Notes: generated by a model not told the origin, from the sequence alone. A stretch of 48,399 nt of DNA from Nanobdellota archaeon (GCA_038046005.1 JBBSXB010000004.1:1-48399); one strand, 5' to 3'; shown: positions 41,737-48,143, numbered from the stretch's first letter. A program made the numbers and translations.

Positions 41737-41808
41737 GGCGGTTGTAGTATAATGGCAGTACGTACGGTTGTGGTCCGTGAGACGAGGGTTCGATTCCCTC
41801 CTTCCGCT
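41737..41808 (+). tRNA. tRNA-His(GTG)
   Basis: G-1 present; anticodon arm TACGG-TTGTGGT-CCGTG; T arm GAGGG-TTCGATT-CCCTC; acceptor GCGGTTG/CTTCCGC with two U-U mismatches. Confidence 0.9.
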
Positions 41809-41865
41809 TAGATGAATACCCATCGGTTTAGAAACCTTTATAAATAGGGTCAGCGTTGATAAAGT

Positions 41866-42984
41866 ATGAGTAAAGTCGAGTTACAAGACTTAAGGATAGA
41901 CAAAAGATATAATTCTCTCAAAGAGCTTTCTGGAAATGAGTTTATTTTAATTGAGAAATTTGTTAATCAGGCAAAGAACGGAGAAAACAATAAAGGCATA
42001 GACATTAAACAAGCGACCGAAGCAAAATATATTGATGCTCTGGCTATGGCTTATCGTTCTTGGAAAAAACCACTTCTTGAATTAAATAAAGAAAGTCTCA
42101 CTCAGCTTAAACAGGACTTGAAAAGTGGAAAGATAAAATCAAGATTTAGAAAACCTTATTCTCAAAGTTCACAAAGAGAAATGGAATTAATCTTAATTCG
42201 TTTTCTTGAATTTGCTAAACCTGAAAAATTCTCTGGGATGAGAAGATGGTTCATTGCTAAAGTTCAGAAAAAAGATGTGGACTTCTTAAGAGAAGCTGAA
42301 ATAGAAAAGTTGTATAATCATTGCAGAAGTGTTGAAGACAGGTTTTTGGTTGCAGTTTTATTTGATAGCGGGGCAAGAGCGAGTGAATTTCTTAATATAA
42401 GGTTTGAGGACATAACAGAACCCACTCAAAATTTTCCTTACTATAAAATAAATTTTAAAGAAGAATACAGTAAGACGAAAGGACGAAATATTGGGCTATA
42501 CTGGAAGCACAGCACAGAATCTATAAAGAATTATTTAAATGAGGTTGAAGGTAAACCTGCAGACCCAGTTTTCAATAAATCTTATGACGCTATAAGACTA
42601 TTCCTAACAGATTTTGGTAAGAAGATTTTAGGCAAGAGAATATATTTTCATATATTTAGAAAATCAAGTGCGACCTACTATGCACAGAAATTAAAATCAA
42701 GACAGCAACTTTGTTATAGATATGGTTGGAATTTCTCATCTGATGTTCCAGACGTATATATCTCTAGAGAACAAGGGGAGGAAGAAGTTAAAGAGAATAT
42801 GAAGAATACTGATATGTCTGAGTTGGATAAACAAAATCAAGAGCTTAAAACAAAAATGGCTATTATTTCTGAAGATAATAAAAAAGAAATTGAAGATTTG
42901 AATTCTAAATTAGAGGAAGTTTACAAATTGTTAAAGAAAAGGAAAGGCTTTGATGATTTGGTTAAGGAGATAGTGAAAAAATGA
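41866..42984 (+). CDS. Tyrosine recombinase/integrase
   Basis: SGARASE (R), SKTKG (K), HIFR (HxxR), YGW, PDVY (Y); directly 3' of tRNA-His. Confidence 0.92.
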   Translation: MSKVELQDLRIDKRYNSLKELSGNEFILIEKFVNQAKNGENNKGIDIKQATEAKYIDALAMAYRSWKKPLLELNKESLTQLKQDLKSGKIKSRFRKPYSQSSQREMELILIRFLEFAKPEKFSGMRRWFIAKVQKKDVDFLREAEIEKLYNHCRSVEDRFLVAVLFDSGARASEFLNIRFEDITEPTQNFPYYKINFKEEYSKTKGRNIGLYWKHSTESIKNYLNEVEGKPADPVFNKSYDAIRLFLTDFGKKILGKRIYFHIFRKSSATYYAQKLKSRQQLCYRYGWNFSSDVPDVYISREQGEEEVKENMKNTDMSELDKQNQELKTKMAIISEDNKKEIEDLNSKLEEVYKLLKKRKGFDDLVKEIVKK

Positions 42985-43786: not shown

Positions 43787-44497
43787 ATGAATTCAAAATT
43801 GCCTCTAATAATGGCTCATGCGGGAGGAGATAAATATTTCCAAGAGAATAGCCTAAAAGCTATAAACCAGTCTAATAAGTTAAAACCAGACATAATAGAA
43901 TTAGATGTAAGAAAATCCAAAGATAACGTACTATTTTGCCATCATGGAAAAATACTTTTAGGTTTATTAAAAGCTTATTTTTCTTCTTATAGAAAGTTTG
44001 ATGATATAAAAAAAGGAAAAACAATATTCACCTTAGAAAAGATTTTGAGTGAAATAAAAAACAATCCAATTATGTATTTAGATATTAAAGATAAAAGAAT
44101 AAATGCAAAAGATATAGAAAACGTATTTAGAAAAGCTAAATTTAGTAGAGTTTACATCGCTTCTTATTCCAAGAAATATTTGGTTAATTTAAAAAATGTT
44201 TTGGGAAAAAAATATCTTTATGCTTACCAACACCCAATTTTTTTCATAAAATCATTTATAAAAAGATACAAAGGCAAGATTAATATGGTCAAAATATTTA
44301 GATGGGAAAAAAAGTATTTTAAAGAGCTAAAAAAGCAAGGATTTCAGCCTAAGCTATATTACTCATTTTATTCAAAAAAAAGATACATTGAAGACAGTAT
44401 CAAGCTTAAAAGTCTGTACATTTGCACGGGGGATACTAAAAAAACAAGGGAACTTATGAAAAAACTTCTTGAAATAGAGAATGTGGTTGATTTTTAG
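43787..44497 (+). CDS. Glycerophosphodiester phosphodiesterase family protein
   Basis: IMAHAGG..ENSLKA, IELDVRKSKD..FCHH, LDIK. Confidence 0.8.
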   Translation: MNSKLPLIMAHAGGDKYFQENSLKAINQSNKLKPDIIELDVRKSKDNVLFCHHGKILLGLLKAYFSSYRKFDDIKKGKTIFTLEKILSEIKNNPIMYLDIKDKRINAKDIENVFRKAKFSRVYIASYSKKYLVNLKNVLGKKYLYAYQHPIFFIKSFIKRYKGKINMVKIFRWEKKYFKELKKQGFQPKLYYSFYSKKRYIEDSIKLKSLYICTGDTKKTRELMKKLLEIENVVDF

Positions 44498-44907
44498 TGA
44501 TCTGTTACTGTAACAATATTCCCTGACAAATATCCGTGCAGTGTTGTTTTTTTAGTCAGCACAATAGGTAATTGAAGCACTAGCATATTAAAAAAAAATA
44601 AATCAAAAGGAAAAAATATCCAAAATAATAAAGTTGAGAAACTTAAAGTGTATAAAACTACATATATCAAGTGATTTCTTTTGGGATATTTCTTTGCATA
44701 TTTTGTTTTCATAAGTATCATTCCAATACATCTATTATCATTGAAAATTAAAAAAGATAAATTGTATACAAAAAATATAATTATTAATATCAACTTTCTT
44801 GTTAGACTGTCTGTAATCAAAAAATAAAACGGGACAAATATTATTAACACTATAATCACATTAATTGCAGAAGTTGCCACCTTTTGAAATGTAGATGTTT
44901 CTCGCAT
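44494..44907 (-). CDS. RDD-like membrane protein
   Basis: Four TM helices; RCIGM and TLHGYLSG motifs. Confidence 0.6.
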   Translation of the reverse strand: MRETSTFQKVATSAINVIIVLIIFVPFYFLITDSLTRKLILIIIFFVYNLSFLIFNDNRCIGMILMKTKYAKKYPKRNHLIYVVLYTLSFSTLLFWIFFPFDLFFFNMLVLQLPIVLTKKTTLHGYLSGNIVTVTDH

Positions 44908-44941
44908 AATAAGTATTATGCATTAGATTTTATAAACGATT

Positions 44942-46377
44942 CTATAGTTTCGACTTTATATGTGCTAAAACGCAGTTAATCTCATCAAAAGTTATCGACT
45001 CATCCTTTATTCTTTCTTTTATCTCTCTCAGCCTTTCATCTTTGTTTTTTATATTGGAATAAATAATAAATATTTTTTTCTTTTCCAAAACCTTTGAGAT
45101 TGGTACTTGCTTGTGTTCAATCAAATTAGCAAGATGCTCCCAGACAGTTGATTCTTTAATCTTTCTTATTTCTGCAATCTTTTTGATTTTAATTCCCTTA
45201 GAATAAAGGAAAAGCGTTTTCTGAACACTAAACTTAGCTTCGCTTTCTTTTATTTTATTAACAAAATTAATATTATTTTTAGTATTGATCATTTCCCCAT
45301 CAATCTTGAAAGACTGGTTGAACCATTTTACAATATGTCTCCTTAATTTGTATGTATCAGCATGAGAAGCATATGCAAGCCAGCCTTCCAATGATTCAAC
45401 TGCTTTTTCTCTTGTTAAAAATCCATTCTTAAACAAAACCTTTAGTTTGCCGAATTTCCTTTCAAAATTTTCTATGTTGCTTTTTCTTAATAATTTATAA
45501 TTGTAGAAAATTCTAAATCCAAGAAAAACCACTCCATTTTCAAGCTTCAATATCTTGGATTTTCCTGAATGAAGTTCCAGTTTTAGTTTATCAGCTATAA
45601 AATTATTAATTTCATCTTTCCATATTTTAAGCTGTTCTTTGGAATTATGGAGAATGACAAAGTCATCAACATATCTGACATAATACTTTGCCTTTAATTT
45701 TTGCTTGACAAAATAATCCAATTCATTAAGGTAAACATTGGCAAAAAACTGCGAAGTTAAGTTGCCAAGAGGCATTCCTTTTTGAAAAACTCGTTCTTCT
45801 CGCGACCCCGCTTCAAACTCCTTGCCAATCCCATCGCGAAATCGCTCGCCCCCCCCCAACTGTTTTTTAGAATTTGTTTTATAAGCCAGATGACTTTTTC
45901 ATCTTTAATTTTTCTGCTTACAATATTGATTAATACTTCATGATCAATCTCCTCAAAATAATGCTTTATGTCTGCCTTCAAAACATAGCAATTTTTAGTG
46001 TTATTTCTTGAGACTTTTCTCTTGAATTTATCAAATCTCTCAAGAGCTTTGTGCGTTCCTTTTCCAATTTGATTTGCGTGAGAGTCATAAATAAATGATT
46101 TTTCAAATACTGGGACAATCAAATTGCACAAAGCATGGTGGACAACCCTATCTCTGAATGCAGATTTTGAAATCTTTCTGGTTTTTGGGTCTCTCAAAAT
46201 AAAGGTCTTAAGCTTGTGTGGTTTGTAAGTTTGAGAAATTAATTCTTCTTGTAATTTTTTTATTTTCCCAATAAGGTTTTCCTCAAATCTTTTTACATAC
46301 CTTCTTTTAGTCTTGCCTTTTCTTGCTTTTTTGTAAGCTAGAAGAAGATTTCCCAAAGAGCATATTTTATCGTACAT
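44942..46377 (-). CDS. DGR reverse transcriptase with C-terminal HTH_40-like domain, split by a -1 frameshift near 45849..45868
   Basis: 5' ORF: DPKTRKI, FRDRVVHHAL, KGTHKA, LKADIKHYF. 3' ORF: GMPLGNLTSQFFANVYL, YVRYVDD, FLG, ending in IAEIRKIKESTVWEHL. The joined product would be about 478 aa. Confidence 0.9.
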
Positions 46378-46411
46378 TTTAATATAAGCCCTAGAATCAC
46401 GCTAAGATATT

Positions 46412-46493
46412 CAACGAAACGACCACGGTCATTGCCAAGACCGTCCGCGCCACCAGCATTAGACCTATTGTCAAGCCTATTGACGTACCACGC
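46412..46493 (-). repeat. DGR template repeat (TR)
   Basis: Non-coding 82-nt copy of both VRs with 14 adenines; mismatches to the VRs fall at TR adenines. Confidence 0.95.
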
Positions 46494-46690
46494 CCGGCAA
46501 ATAGCTTCTTCACTTTAGTTTGCTCACTGCTGTTTCACTTTGTGTCACAGCTGTATTTTATAGCAACATTGTTGCCCTAGTGAAAAAGCCTGTAACCTAG
46601 CTCACTTCAATCTCTAAAGATTGGATTCTAGGGTGATAATTTTCAAGAAAAATTGTATAAAAATATATAGGTTGTAGAAAAATTATATTA

Positions 46691-47371
46691 CTAAGCTGTT
46701 TTTTTAGAAACGCCAGCGCCTCCGGCGCTAACCCCAACGAAACGACCACGGACATCGCCAAGACCGCCCACGCCACCAGCACTAGACCCATAGTCAAGCC
46801 ACCTGACGCACCACGCTCTTAATGTAGGAACATCAATTGCAGAACCTAAATAAATTCCCATGTTCTTATCATAGCTAAATCTATCTTTAGTTTCTTTGAA
46901 TACAAAATCAGCATATTCTTCAAGCAAGTTTTTATCCCTTGCAAGAGTTTGCCATAAAGGATTTTTTCTTGCCTGTCTTGCACTTAATAAATCGCCAGTG
47001 TATTTTTCCAAATCAGATTTTTTGAATTCTGCTCCCTGAATAGTATTGTAAACTCCATCAGGCAAAACCAATGCTCCTGACCTTAACTGGCTTTGAGGAT
47101 TAATTCCTCTTAATTCTTTTGAGTCTAAAGCTATTTTTATTCTTCCATCAGGATGATAAACAACTACGTCTCCTGTGTCAAAATAATTATCAACATAGGA
47201 TGATCTTACTTCATTGTTAACAGGAAGCTTTCTTAATTCAAGTCTTCTCTTCATAAGTCCTGAAACAGACAAAGGAGTTCTTCCATCAGCTATCAATTTA
47301 GGCATTTGTTCAACATTTCTGCCATAGAATTCAGCATAAGTCACAGGAGATTCGTTTAATGTTAAAGCCAT
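46691..47371 (-). CDS. DGR target protein 1 (C-terminal VR, CLec-like fold expected)
   Basis: VR at the 3' end, ending RGRFVG; paralog of 47373..48143. Confidence 0.92.
   Translation of the reverse strand: MALTLNESPVTYAEFYGRNVEQMPKLIADGRTPLSVSGLMKRRLELRKLPVNNEVRSSYVDNYFDTGDVVVYHPDGRIKIALDSKELRGINPQSQLRSGALVLPDGVYNTIQGAEFKKSDLEKYTGDLLSARQARKNPLWQTLARDKNLLEEYADFVFKETKDRFSYDKNMGIYLGSAIDVPTLRAWCVRWLDYGSSAGGVGGLGDVRGRFVGVSAGGAGVSKKTA
46715..46729 (-). promoter_or_regulatory. DGR homing hairpin 3' of VR1
   Basis: AGCGCC-GGA-GGCGCT; absent after TR. Confidence 0.85.
46735..46816 (-). repeat. DGR variable repeat VR1
   Basis: 11 mismatches to TR in 82 nt, 9 of them at TR adenines. Confidence 0.95.
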
Positions 47372-47372
47372 T

Positions 47373-48143
47373 TTATTTTGTCCTTATCTCCAAACCGCCA
47401 AGATTTTGATTTATAACATCTAATGATTGTGCTAATGTAGGTCTTAAAATTCGCGCGTTTGGCGCCTCCGGCGCTATCCCAACGAAACGACCACGGTCAT
47501 TGCCAAGACCGCCCGCGCCACCAGCAACAGACCCATAGTCAAGCCTATCGACGCACCACGCTCTAAGCTTTGGCACTTTGCCTAATGAGTCTAAATAAAC
47601 GCCCATATTTGTGTTTGAATTTGTTTGTTTTGCAACCCAAGTTGAGTATTCTTGAAGCAATTTTTCATCTTCTGCAAATTCTGCTGGAACTTCGCTAGGA
47701 TGCCTTGCTAAAATTCTCCAGACTTTGTGGCCAAGTATTTCATCCTGAGTAAGATGACTTTCAGTTTTTCCCAAGTTGCTCATTGCAACCTCAATTCCAT
47801 TTATAGATTGATATTGTTCTGGAGTAAGCTCAATTGCTCCAGAGCTTAATCTTGCATTTGGAGTTATCAGTCCTAAAGCCTTTCTTCCGTTCTCTGTTAT
47901 TTTTTGATTTCTATCAACACTAAAAACGAATTTTGCCTTTCCACTGTCTTTTGAATTGTAAACAATTAAATCAGAACTATCAAAATAATTAGTTTTCCAA
48001 TCAGAGAATGTTGCGCTCTGCCCCATTCTGTAATGCATAAGATTGGCGACGCTCATTGGTATTCTGCCATCTGCTAAAAGCTTTGGCATTGCGTCCACGT
48101 TTCTTCCTTCGTATGTATCAATAGGATTTACTGATAGTTTCAT
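47373..48143 (-). CDS. DGR target protein 2
   Basis: VR near the 3' end; shares GRNV..MPKL.ADGR.P.SV and NMG.YL motifs with target 1. Confidence 0.92.
   Translation of the reverse strand: MKLSVNPIDTYEGRNVDAMPKLLADGRIPMSVANLMHYRMGQSATFSDWKTNYFDSSDLIVYNSKDSGKAKFVFSVDRNQKITENGRKALGLITPNARLSSGAIELTPEQYQSINGIEVAMSNLGKTESHLTQDEILGHKVWRILARHPSEVPAEFAEDEKLLQEYSTWVAKQTNSNTNMGVYLDSLGKVPKLRAWCVDRLDYGSVAGGAGGLGNDRGRFVGIAPEAPNARILRPTLAQSLDVINQNLGGLEIRTK
47462..47474 (-). promoter_or_regulatory. DGR homing hairpin 3' of VR2
   Basis: GCGCC-GGA-GGCGC. Confidence 0.85.
47480..47561 (-). repeat. DGR variable repeat VR2
   Basis: 7 mismatches to TR in 82 nt, all at TR adenines. Confidence 0.95.

Follow-up and report, generated by a model that had tools for sequence, protein, structure and literature searches.

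How a diversity-generating retroelement (DGR) makes and installs its complementary DNA (cDNA) in the absence of the accessory protein Avd is an open question, and it is raised directly by the locus described here. The window, meaning the whole stretch of DNA that was analysed (48,399 nt, or 48.4 kb), is the entire contig C4 of a Nanobdellota archaeon genome (G000; 875 kb in 15 contigs, estimated to be 98.2% complete), and its G+C content is 34%. At its right end lies a DGR with two target genes, a template repeat (TR), an RT-16 RNA motif and a reverse transcriptase (RT) that continues beyond its thumb into an additional C-terminal domain. We identified this domain as HTH_40 (PF14493), a helix-turn-helix (HTH) family with the fold of a RecQ helicase tail. 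An HTH_40 of the RecQ/Pif1 type, found in a lineage that carries RT-16 and is devoid of Avd, is a concrete candidate for the missing accessory function.

The reading frame passes from the thumb into HTH_40 without a stop. The initial annotation of this DNA had noted that the RT frame extends about 100 amino acids (aa) past the thumb and resembles the RecQ/YpbB HTH_40, and it proposed a profile search of the C-terminus, which returned a clear match. Within the 305-aa C-terminal open reading frame (ORF), the match to PF14493 covered the full profile (positions 1–89 of 89) with E 2.1e-17 and 63.6 bits vs. a gathering cut-off of 27, and the last 102 residues alone, again matching the full profile, scored 67.8 bits (E 1.1e-18). 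An alignment of 32 domains of this kind served as the basis for a structure model of the 102 residues, which consisted of six helices with a mean predicted local distance difference test score (pLDDT) of 93.2. Compared with ~48,000 representative solved chains, the model had a sole full-domain match, the C-terminal domain of Porphyromonas gingivalis RecQ (3iuo, residues 617–723), on which 101 of 102 residues were aligned with a Z score of 10.2 and a root-mean-square deviation of 3.4 Å at ~10% identity, a likeness of fold. Foldseek also ranked 3iuo first (probability 0.99, TM 0.65–0.68). Sequence searches of the PDB with the domain and with its profile gave nothing significant, the best being 2lvs over 35 residues (E 0.0045). 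By Pfam match, model and superposition, the fused C-terminal domain of this DGR RT is HTH_40 with the RecQ-tail fold. The domain also looks like the nucleic-acid binder that had been supposed, with a mean isoelectric point (pI) of 9.73 (standard deviation 0.24, n = 33). It is conserved to the same degree as the enzyme, with a mean column identity of 61% in 32 HTH parts vs. 59% in 22 RT cores, and the window's copy has retained all invariant and nearly invariant residues.

The protein context of HTH_40 was investigated with a profile of the 32 domains searched against 1.84 billion proteins, which retrieved 3078 cluster representatives at E ≤ 0.001, of which 244 reached E ≤ 1e-10. Twelve of the 150 matches listed were chosen by length and then scanned with Pfam. 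Three were RecQ-type proteins with DEAD, Helicase_C, RecQ_Zn_bind and RQC domains (P0164, P0184 and P0169) and two were PIF1-type helicases (P0208 and P0217), with HRDC directly adjoining HTH_40 in P0164, P0184 and P0217. The others of the twelve included one small RQC plus HTH_40 protein, one RT fusion, and P0185, which alone carried sigma-70 regions. In a language-model atlas, the nearest named clusters were stand-alone HTH_40 proteins of ~100 aa. These sampled contexts indicate that HTH_40 is, as HRDC is, an auxiliary module carried on the tails of RecQ/Pif1 helicases. DGRs are also known to have HRDC as an established class of accessory gene (PMC5758913; PMC4891356).

A different role might be read from the first half of the domain. 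Every structural match other than 3iuo was restricted to residues 1–48, which resemble the ordinary HTH DNA-binding domains of DeoR, SorC, LuxR/NarL and resolvase (Z 7–8.4), and weak profile matches to NarL/GerE were also obtained. These likenesses would suit a transcriptional regulator that binds the cassette's own promoter DNA and controls DGR expression, but we consider such a role very improbable. The full domain matches a helicase tail only, and the sampled proteins are mainly helicases, with sigma-70 regions in one of the twelve. Moreover, a repressor fused at the C-terminus of an enzyme would be unusual.

The fusion resides in a bona fide DGR cassette that has two targets. The features are arranged on the minus strand in the order target gene 2, target gene 1 (its paralogue), a 313-nt spacer, and the RT gene in two overlapping ORFs (Table 1). 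A 132-nt repeat family connects the spacer, which holds the TR, with the 3' ends of both target genes, which hold the variable repeats VR1 and VR2. Within the homologous core, TR adenines account for 11 of the 13 differences between TR and VR1 and for all 9 between TR and VR2. A GC stem with a 3-nt loop follows both VRs, and none follows the TR. The RVT_1 family was matched in both RT ORFs, and the translation contains PLGNLTSQ and YVDD; a motif 4 with the signature [ILV]GxxxSQ is a mark of DGR RTs. The spacer, measured from the stop of target gene 1 (46691) to the RT start (46377), is taken up by the TR and the RT-16 RNA motif, which scored above its gathering threshold and lies 119 nt upstream of the RT start; the TR is in cis. 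Target gene 1 had no match in Pfam or NCBIfam. One element expected of a working DGR, an intact and expressible RT, is absent from the consensus, in which nine consecutive G residues (G9) mark a break in the frame.

This genome is not alone in having the fusion. Searches with the 305-aa ORF matched 5892 of 8000 scored candidates, and PF00078 and PF14493 were both present in all of the best 120 of these 5892, whose source names include Nanoarchaeota, Pacearchaeota and one Paceibacterota. A related RT was found in 125 of 401 genomes sampled from the window's phylum; among the 150 RT matches listed, beyond which lie 61 weaker ones, at least 35 extend through HTH_40, in at least 29 of the 401 genomes. 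A scan of viral contigs gave no relatives of the ORF. Judged by these sequences, the window RT is a member of a large DPANN-archaeal RT subfamily with HTH_40 fused behind the thumb. The fusion is already in databases, where public annotation labels some fused proteins "helix-turn-helix domain-containing protein".

To place the fusion among its relatives, loci were compared from three sources (15 from named genome contigs, 20 with non-fused RTs and 20 with fused RTs). The distinct loci numbered 32 fused and 23 non-fused, with one duplicate (L042) dropped. An RT tree was built from motif 4 to the thumb only, with HTH columns excluded; its 60 rows comprised these 32 and 23 loci together with 5 Avd-linked RTs. 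The fused and non-fused labels changed once on this tree, and none of 500 shuffles was as low. The Avd-linked RTs formed a long-branched outgroup (support 97). At one locus, L025, the RT (361 aa) ends after the thumb, and a separate HTH_40 gene of 119 aa (E 3e-11) lies 64 nt downstream. This arrangement looks like a secondary split because the L025 RT nests within the fused group. Given this separate gene beside an RT, HTH_40 appears to behave like an accessory module.

The fused proteins come in two sizes, ~465–505 aa, to which the window RT belongs, and ~535–615 aa. The longer form has an extra domain of ~85 aa behind HTH_40, with four invariant cysteines (CxxxC...C...C), at 20 distinct loci (from among L005, L008–L011, L036–L044 and L049–L055); the window RT is without it. 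Five long forms were scanned, and this domain had no Pfam match in them; its model had a pLDDT of 73.7 and its best fold match a Z score of 5.1. Directly upstream of four long fused RTs lies a conserved ORF of 65–91 aa on the opposite strand, with the common sequence ...KKEIIERSVKQLNTYGNGIGVLVTREAKAIGLK... and no significant Pfam match.

The absence of Avd was investigated in the cassette, the genome and the phylum. The initial annotation had reported no avd in the cassette, and this held: no Avd-sized ORF fits in the 313 nt between the target 1 stop and the RT start, and the small ORFs beside the window RT had no bAvd match. A search of the genome for a remote avd, which had also been proposed, found none; PF22296 (bAvd) and PF05635 each had no match at E ≤ 1, and TIGR02436 reached only 14.3 bits, inside a 336-aa frame. 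HRDC had no Pfam match at E ≤ 1 in the RT ORFs and targets, nor at E ≤ 0.001 in the neighbouring 137-aa ORF. The cassette is therefore of neither the Avd-dependent nor the HRDC type.

Across the phylum, bAvd was above its cut-off in 7 of the 401 genomes, and all 7 also had an RT match. Among the matches listed, this corresponds to 1 of 29 genomes with fused RTs vs. 6 of 96 with other RT matches, so that bAvd is equally rare in both. An RT ORF adjoins the bAvd gene at four of the seven bAvd loci (L057, L061, L062 and L063), and L059 has only RT fragments, ~2 kb from bAvd; the HTH part is absent from all of these RTs. The fused-RT genome that encodes bAvd (G324) has it beside a different, non-fused RT (L057). 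A neighbour scan of 111 ORFs of 75–220 aa within 900 nt of the RT at 56 loci identified a single bAvd, at an Aenigmatarchaeota locus with a non-fused RT (L012), and none beside the fused RTs (0 of 32 distinct loci). All-against-all comparison of the small neighbouring ORFs gave no other conserved accessory family.

PF05635 was rejected as a proxy for avd, and PF22296 was used instead. PF05635 was above its cut-off in 80 of the 401 genomes, a tally that includes four genomes flagged as unpublished (G242, G243, G359 and G395, of which G359 is also in the sub-threshold PF22296 rows), and mostly away from RTs. None of the other claims made here depends on these four. The matches lay on other contigs than the RT matches listed in all genomes but G197, where the distance to the RT was 8.8 kb (on its contig C9), and many were near contig ends. 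PF05635 proteins of these archaea are probably 23S-rRNA-intervening-sequence proteins, which makes the family a misleading avd proxy here.

These results bear on the proposal that the fused HTH_40 does Avd's job in cDNA synthesis, leaving a cassette without avd. An anti-correlation between fusion and avd had been suggested as a check, and it came out in part: none of the 32 fused loci has bAvd, but neither do 22 of the 23 non-fused sister loci. Non-co-occurrence is uninformative because the whole lineage is without avd, and since the non-fused sister RTs also lack it, Avd-independence is a trait that the clade at large possesses, and the fusion is not its source. This corrects an attractive shortcut, in which the absence of Avd would be a consequence of the fusion. 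The rarity of bAvd in the phylum in any case, and the difference in fold, also argue against substitution; Avd is a pentameric four-helix bundle, and HTH_40 is a six-helix HTH domain. The proposal draws on the lack of HTH parts in bAvd-linked RTs, on the empty fused cassettes, on the 98%-complete genome without avd, and on the pI of 9.7, which resembles the 9.5 reported for Avd in PMC5758913. Overall, replacement of Avd by HTH_40 was not borne out, and we regard it as unlikely. The other idea of the initial annotation, that the domain may recognise the VR hairpin, is speculative; hairpins do follow both VRs.

RT-16 was found at 23 of the 32 distinct fused loci and at 21 of the 23 non-fused loci; it was detected at neither of the two Avd-linked loci searched, nor at the remaining 9 fused loci. 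On this distribution, RT-16 is best described as a lineage marker. Its orientation differed between the groups: RT-16 and the TR lie on the strand opposite the RT at 8 of the 23 fused loci with RT-16 (L003, L004, L010, L036, L037, L040, L053 and L054) and at 0 of the 21 non-fused loci with RT-16. The sole non-adjacent non-fused case was L012, in which the bAvd gene lies in between. With L012 counted as non-adjacent, Fisher's test on TR placement gave p 0.02, a value that overstates the difference, as related loci are not independent; the opposite-strand difference is for this reason a lead and not a result. It suggests that HTH_40 may help the RT reach a template outside its own transcript. 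In the strongest form of this idea, HTH_40 would be a trans-acting handle with which the RT finds TR RNA or target off its own transcript, uncoupling RT from TR. We judge this rather doubtful, given that the window's TR is in cis with RT-16 just upstream of the RT and that 9 fused loci have no RT-16 match.

Whether the fused protein is made at all depends on the G9 run; no other G/C run in the window reaches a length of 7. The two RT ORFs overlap at this run, just upstream of RT motif 4, and one additional G or the loss of two would rejoin the frame. Contigs built independently from three public sequencing runs of two studies (X3, X4 and X5) showed no differences and no gaps over 44900–46441, at a depth of up to 159; these runs may include the assembly's own source, and contigs hide rare variants. 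Because the contigs of three runs reproduce it, the frame break is no one-off assembly slip. With the gene shifted by one base at G9, the consensus DNA here does not yield the fused protein. The caveat of the initial annotation, that the protein is made only if the frameshift is bypassed, is thus borne out by the break between the two ORFs.

At 11 of the 55 distinct loci, in both fused and non-fused groups and in independent genomes, this site is occupied by at least 8 consecutive G (range 8–12). In eight of these 11 the RT is divided between two ORFs that overlap at the run; L001 and L016, both with G8, are in frame, and L023 (G10) is a single ORF. L022 has a run of 6 at the site, L048 (G9) covers the C-terminal part only, and the frame of L047 breaks at a (GA)n repeat there. 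Where the frame of a split locus was resolved, it would be restored by +1 in three cases, one of them the window, and by −1 in four, a mixture that makes a uniform programmed ribosomal frameshift unlikely. Runs of at least 8 G or C numbered 17 in 74 kb of RT genes vs. 5 in the remaining 445 kb of the loci. From these sequences, the G-run looks like a slippage switch for the mutator.

Sequence variation in the targets was also observed. The assembly of a further run, X1, contained two variant contigs of VR1 (46729–46834) and three of VR2 (47467–47584), with 6 of 9 variable sites in VR1 and 11 of 11 in VR2 at TR adenines. DGR diversification has therefore occurred in the natural population. In runs X3, X4 and X5, VR1 and VR2 were each present in a single form. 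This monomorphism, together with a frameshift that is identical in the contigs of three runs from two studies, would be expected if the domain were a relic that is simply not made here, the RT having been recently inactivated or switched off. We take this to be a real possibility, although short of an even chance. Both ORFs are otherwise intact, with the catalytic motif and all conserved HTH residues kept, and the recurrence of long G-runs at the same site, with +1 or −1 needed, fits a reversible switch; in addition, the runs may be the assembly's source and their contigs drop rare variants.

We favor the explanation that HTH_40 is an accessory module for nucleic-acid binding that is built into the RT and has its counterpart in the HRDC accessory genes, and we consider it probable, with some reserve. 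The parallel is drawn because HRDC adjoins HTH_40 in RecQ and Pif1 helicases. The domain would assist the RT in gripping its template RNA (RT-16 plus TR) or, alternatively, the cDNA or target DNA during retrohoming, DNA structures being suggested by the helicase relatives. It would be an addition to a DGR lineage that was already Avd-independent and associated with RT-16, and not a one-for-one replacement of Avd.

Several points weigh against the accessory-module explanation. No experiment or co-variation links HTH_40 to any nucleic acid, and RT-16 was rejected as an HTH_40-specific partner, as it is present in both fused and non-fused groups. Sister RTs function, or at any rate survive, with neither HTH_40 nor Avd (bAvd is missing beside 22 of the 23 non-fused loci), so the domain is dispensable for the basic reaction there; the Avd scan behind this count was confined to ORFs of 75–220 aa within 900 nt, with several loci cut by contig ends. 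The fused/non-fused split on the RT tree was weakly supported (58 and 57 in the Shimodaira–Hasegawa-like approximate likelihood ratio test, SH-aLRT), and the Foldseek E-value for 3iuo was 0.27. Finally, the RT is frameshifted here, and run X1 has no contig over the RT; the VR variation in X1 need not stem from the window RT because the genome has a second DGR (contig C9) and an RT fragment (contig C8).

A broader reading, which we put forward tentatively and think less probable than not, joins these observations. DGRs may have captured two modules that are neighbors in the tails of RecQ/Pif1 helicases, with HRDC kept as a gene of its own and HTH_40 joined to the RT, and recognition of a DNA structure (a hairpin, D-loop or replication intermediate) by a helicase-type domain could then be a general, hitherto unrecognized step of retrohoming. 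RT-HTH_40 with RT-16 and the TR would be a natural single-protein, Avd-free DGR, also usable with a template transcribed apart. No smaller self-contained targeted mutator would be known, and a slippery G-run would serve as its gate. The locus points to compact one-protein DGRs, which could simplify engineered hypermutation, so far reliant on bRT plus Avd.

Coordinates of the cassette and of other features mentioned are collected in Table 1. Directly downstream of the RT lies a 137-aa ORF that is hydrophobic by eye and had no Pfam match at E ≤ 0.001. Further along the window, a tRNA-His is directly followed by a 372-aa tyrosine recombinase (weak XerA-type match), a context in which the DGR may be part of an integrated element extending as far as the end of the contig. 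The fused RTs at L037, L051, L054 and L055 are likewise flanked by small Phage_integrase ORFs (169–175 aa). Elsewhere in the same genome, the second DGR is found at the end of contig C9 (C9:1–1744, L065), with a target-like ORF and RT-16; its RT runs off the contig, and the N and C parts are separate ORFs. The RT 3' fragment on contig C8 (C8:1–1825, L066) is separate and without HTH_40. Contig C8 begins with ~48 C, probably a poly-G sequencing artefact.

Table 1. Positions of the DGR cassette in the window and of related features at other loci (window numbering unless a locus is named).
Feature	Position	Strand	Description
RT N-terminal ORF	45757–46377	−	206 aa, motifs 1–3; RVT_1 at residues 65–173, E 1.2e-7; real coding portion stops at the G-run
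RT C-terminal ORF	44942–45859	−	305 aa; motifs 4–7 (PLGNLTSQ, YVDD), thumb, HTH_40; RVT_1 at residues 19–117; in frame only downstream of the G-run
HTH_40 domain	44966–45229	−	Residues 211–298 of the 305-aa ORF; six helices, basic, RecQ-C-terminal-like fold
G9 homopolymer (C9 on the + strand)	45849–45857	−	RT frame breaks; +1 nt or −2 nt needed
TR	~46400–46493	−	From repeat family D1 and alignment; TR register of repeat 46410–46541
RT-16 RNA motif (Rfam RF03019)	46496–46632	−	Directly upstream of TR; 74.4 bits (gathering 50), E 7.6e-11, model 1–158 of 158
Target gene 1	46691–47371	−	226 aa; VR1 ~46733–46816; GC hairpin with 3-nt loop, 46715–46729
Target gene 2	47373–48143	−	256 aa; VR2 ~47478–47561; hairpin 47462–47474
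137-aa ORF	44494–44907	−	Directly downstream of RT
tRNA-His	41737–41809		
Tyrosine recombinase	41866–42984		372 aa
Loci with run or repeat at the G9 site	L001, L005–L007, L016, L022, L023, L030, L033, L045–L048, window		G-run, or (GA)n in L047
65–91-aa ORF copies	L010:5178–5375, L038:6489–6764, L040:4186–4449, L041:4229–4492	Opposite to RT	Conserved sequence
Separate HTH_40 gene	L025:4561–4920	−	119 aa
RT-16 of the second DGR	L065:898–1057	−	

Full-text literature searches found no report of HTH_40/PF14493 joined with DGR RTs, and the fusion is apparently undescribed in print; the available parts of Roux et al. 2021 (PMC8144416), Gonzalez-Delgado et al. 2021 (PMC8632793), Sharifi and Ye 2021 (PMC8934634) and Paul et al. 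2015 (PMC4372165) contain no HTH fusion. No function for HTH_40 turned up in the literature examined, and the term RT-16 was not found linked to DGRs in the literature search. C-terminal extensions of DGR RTs have been noted before. According to Wu et al. 2018 (PMC5758913), they reach ~150 aa and occur, unexplained, in ~20% of DGR RTs; neither RNase H nor nuclease domains were reported in them, and the sole similarity was to MutS_I, weakly and in three RTs. The same paper reports that 26% of DGRs are without avd and have no remote avd, such that an Avd-independent mechanism must exist.

The window most closely recalls the DGRs of DPANN archaea and the Candidate Phyla Radiation (CPR), as described in PMC4372165 and PMC5758913 (Architecture A, "TR-RT"). 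Both have targets, TR and RT on one strand with no accessory gene, adenine-specific TR/VR mismatches, a GC hairpin with a 3-nt loop after the VRs, and a PLGNLTSQ-type motif. The window RT differs from them in carrying an identified extra domain. The TR-(avd)-RT architecture, which makes up 90% of the CPR set in PMC5758913, is not that of the window lineage.

The HRDC accessory genes of the Treponema denticola type (PMC4891356; PMC5758913, Architecture C) likewise place a small nucleic-acid-binding module from a RecQ tail on a DGR. Unlike these, HTH_40 has another fold, belongs to another Pfam family and is fused to the RT (except at L025). Its pI of 9.7 also contrasts with that of HRDC accessory proteins, given as near neutral (6.9) in PMC5758913. 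With the HTH_40 tails of RecQ and Pif1 helicases, including P. gingivalis RecQ (3iuo), the window domain has a common Pfam family and a common six-helix fold, although it is carried on an RT and not on a helicase. The DGR of Bordetella phage BPP-1 (bRT-Avd) requires a spacer RNA downstream of its TR. Unlike that system, the window has no Avd (PF22296, PF05635) and carries RT-16 RNA upstream of the TR; the two nevertheless have in common the logic of mutagenic retrohoming from TR to VR.

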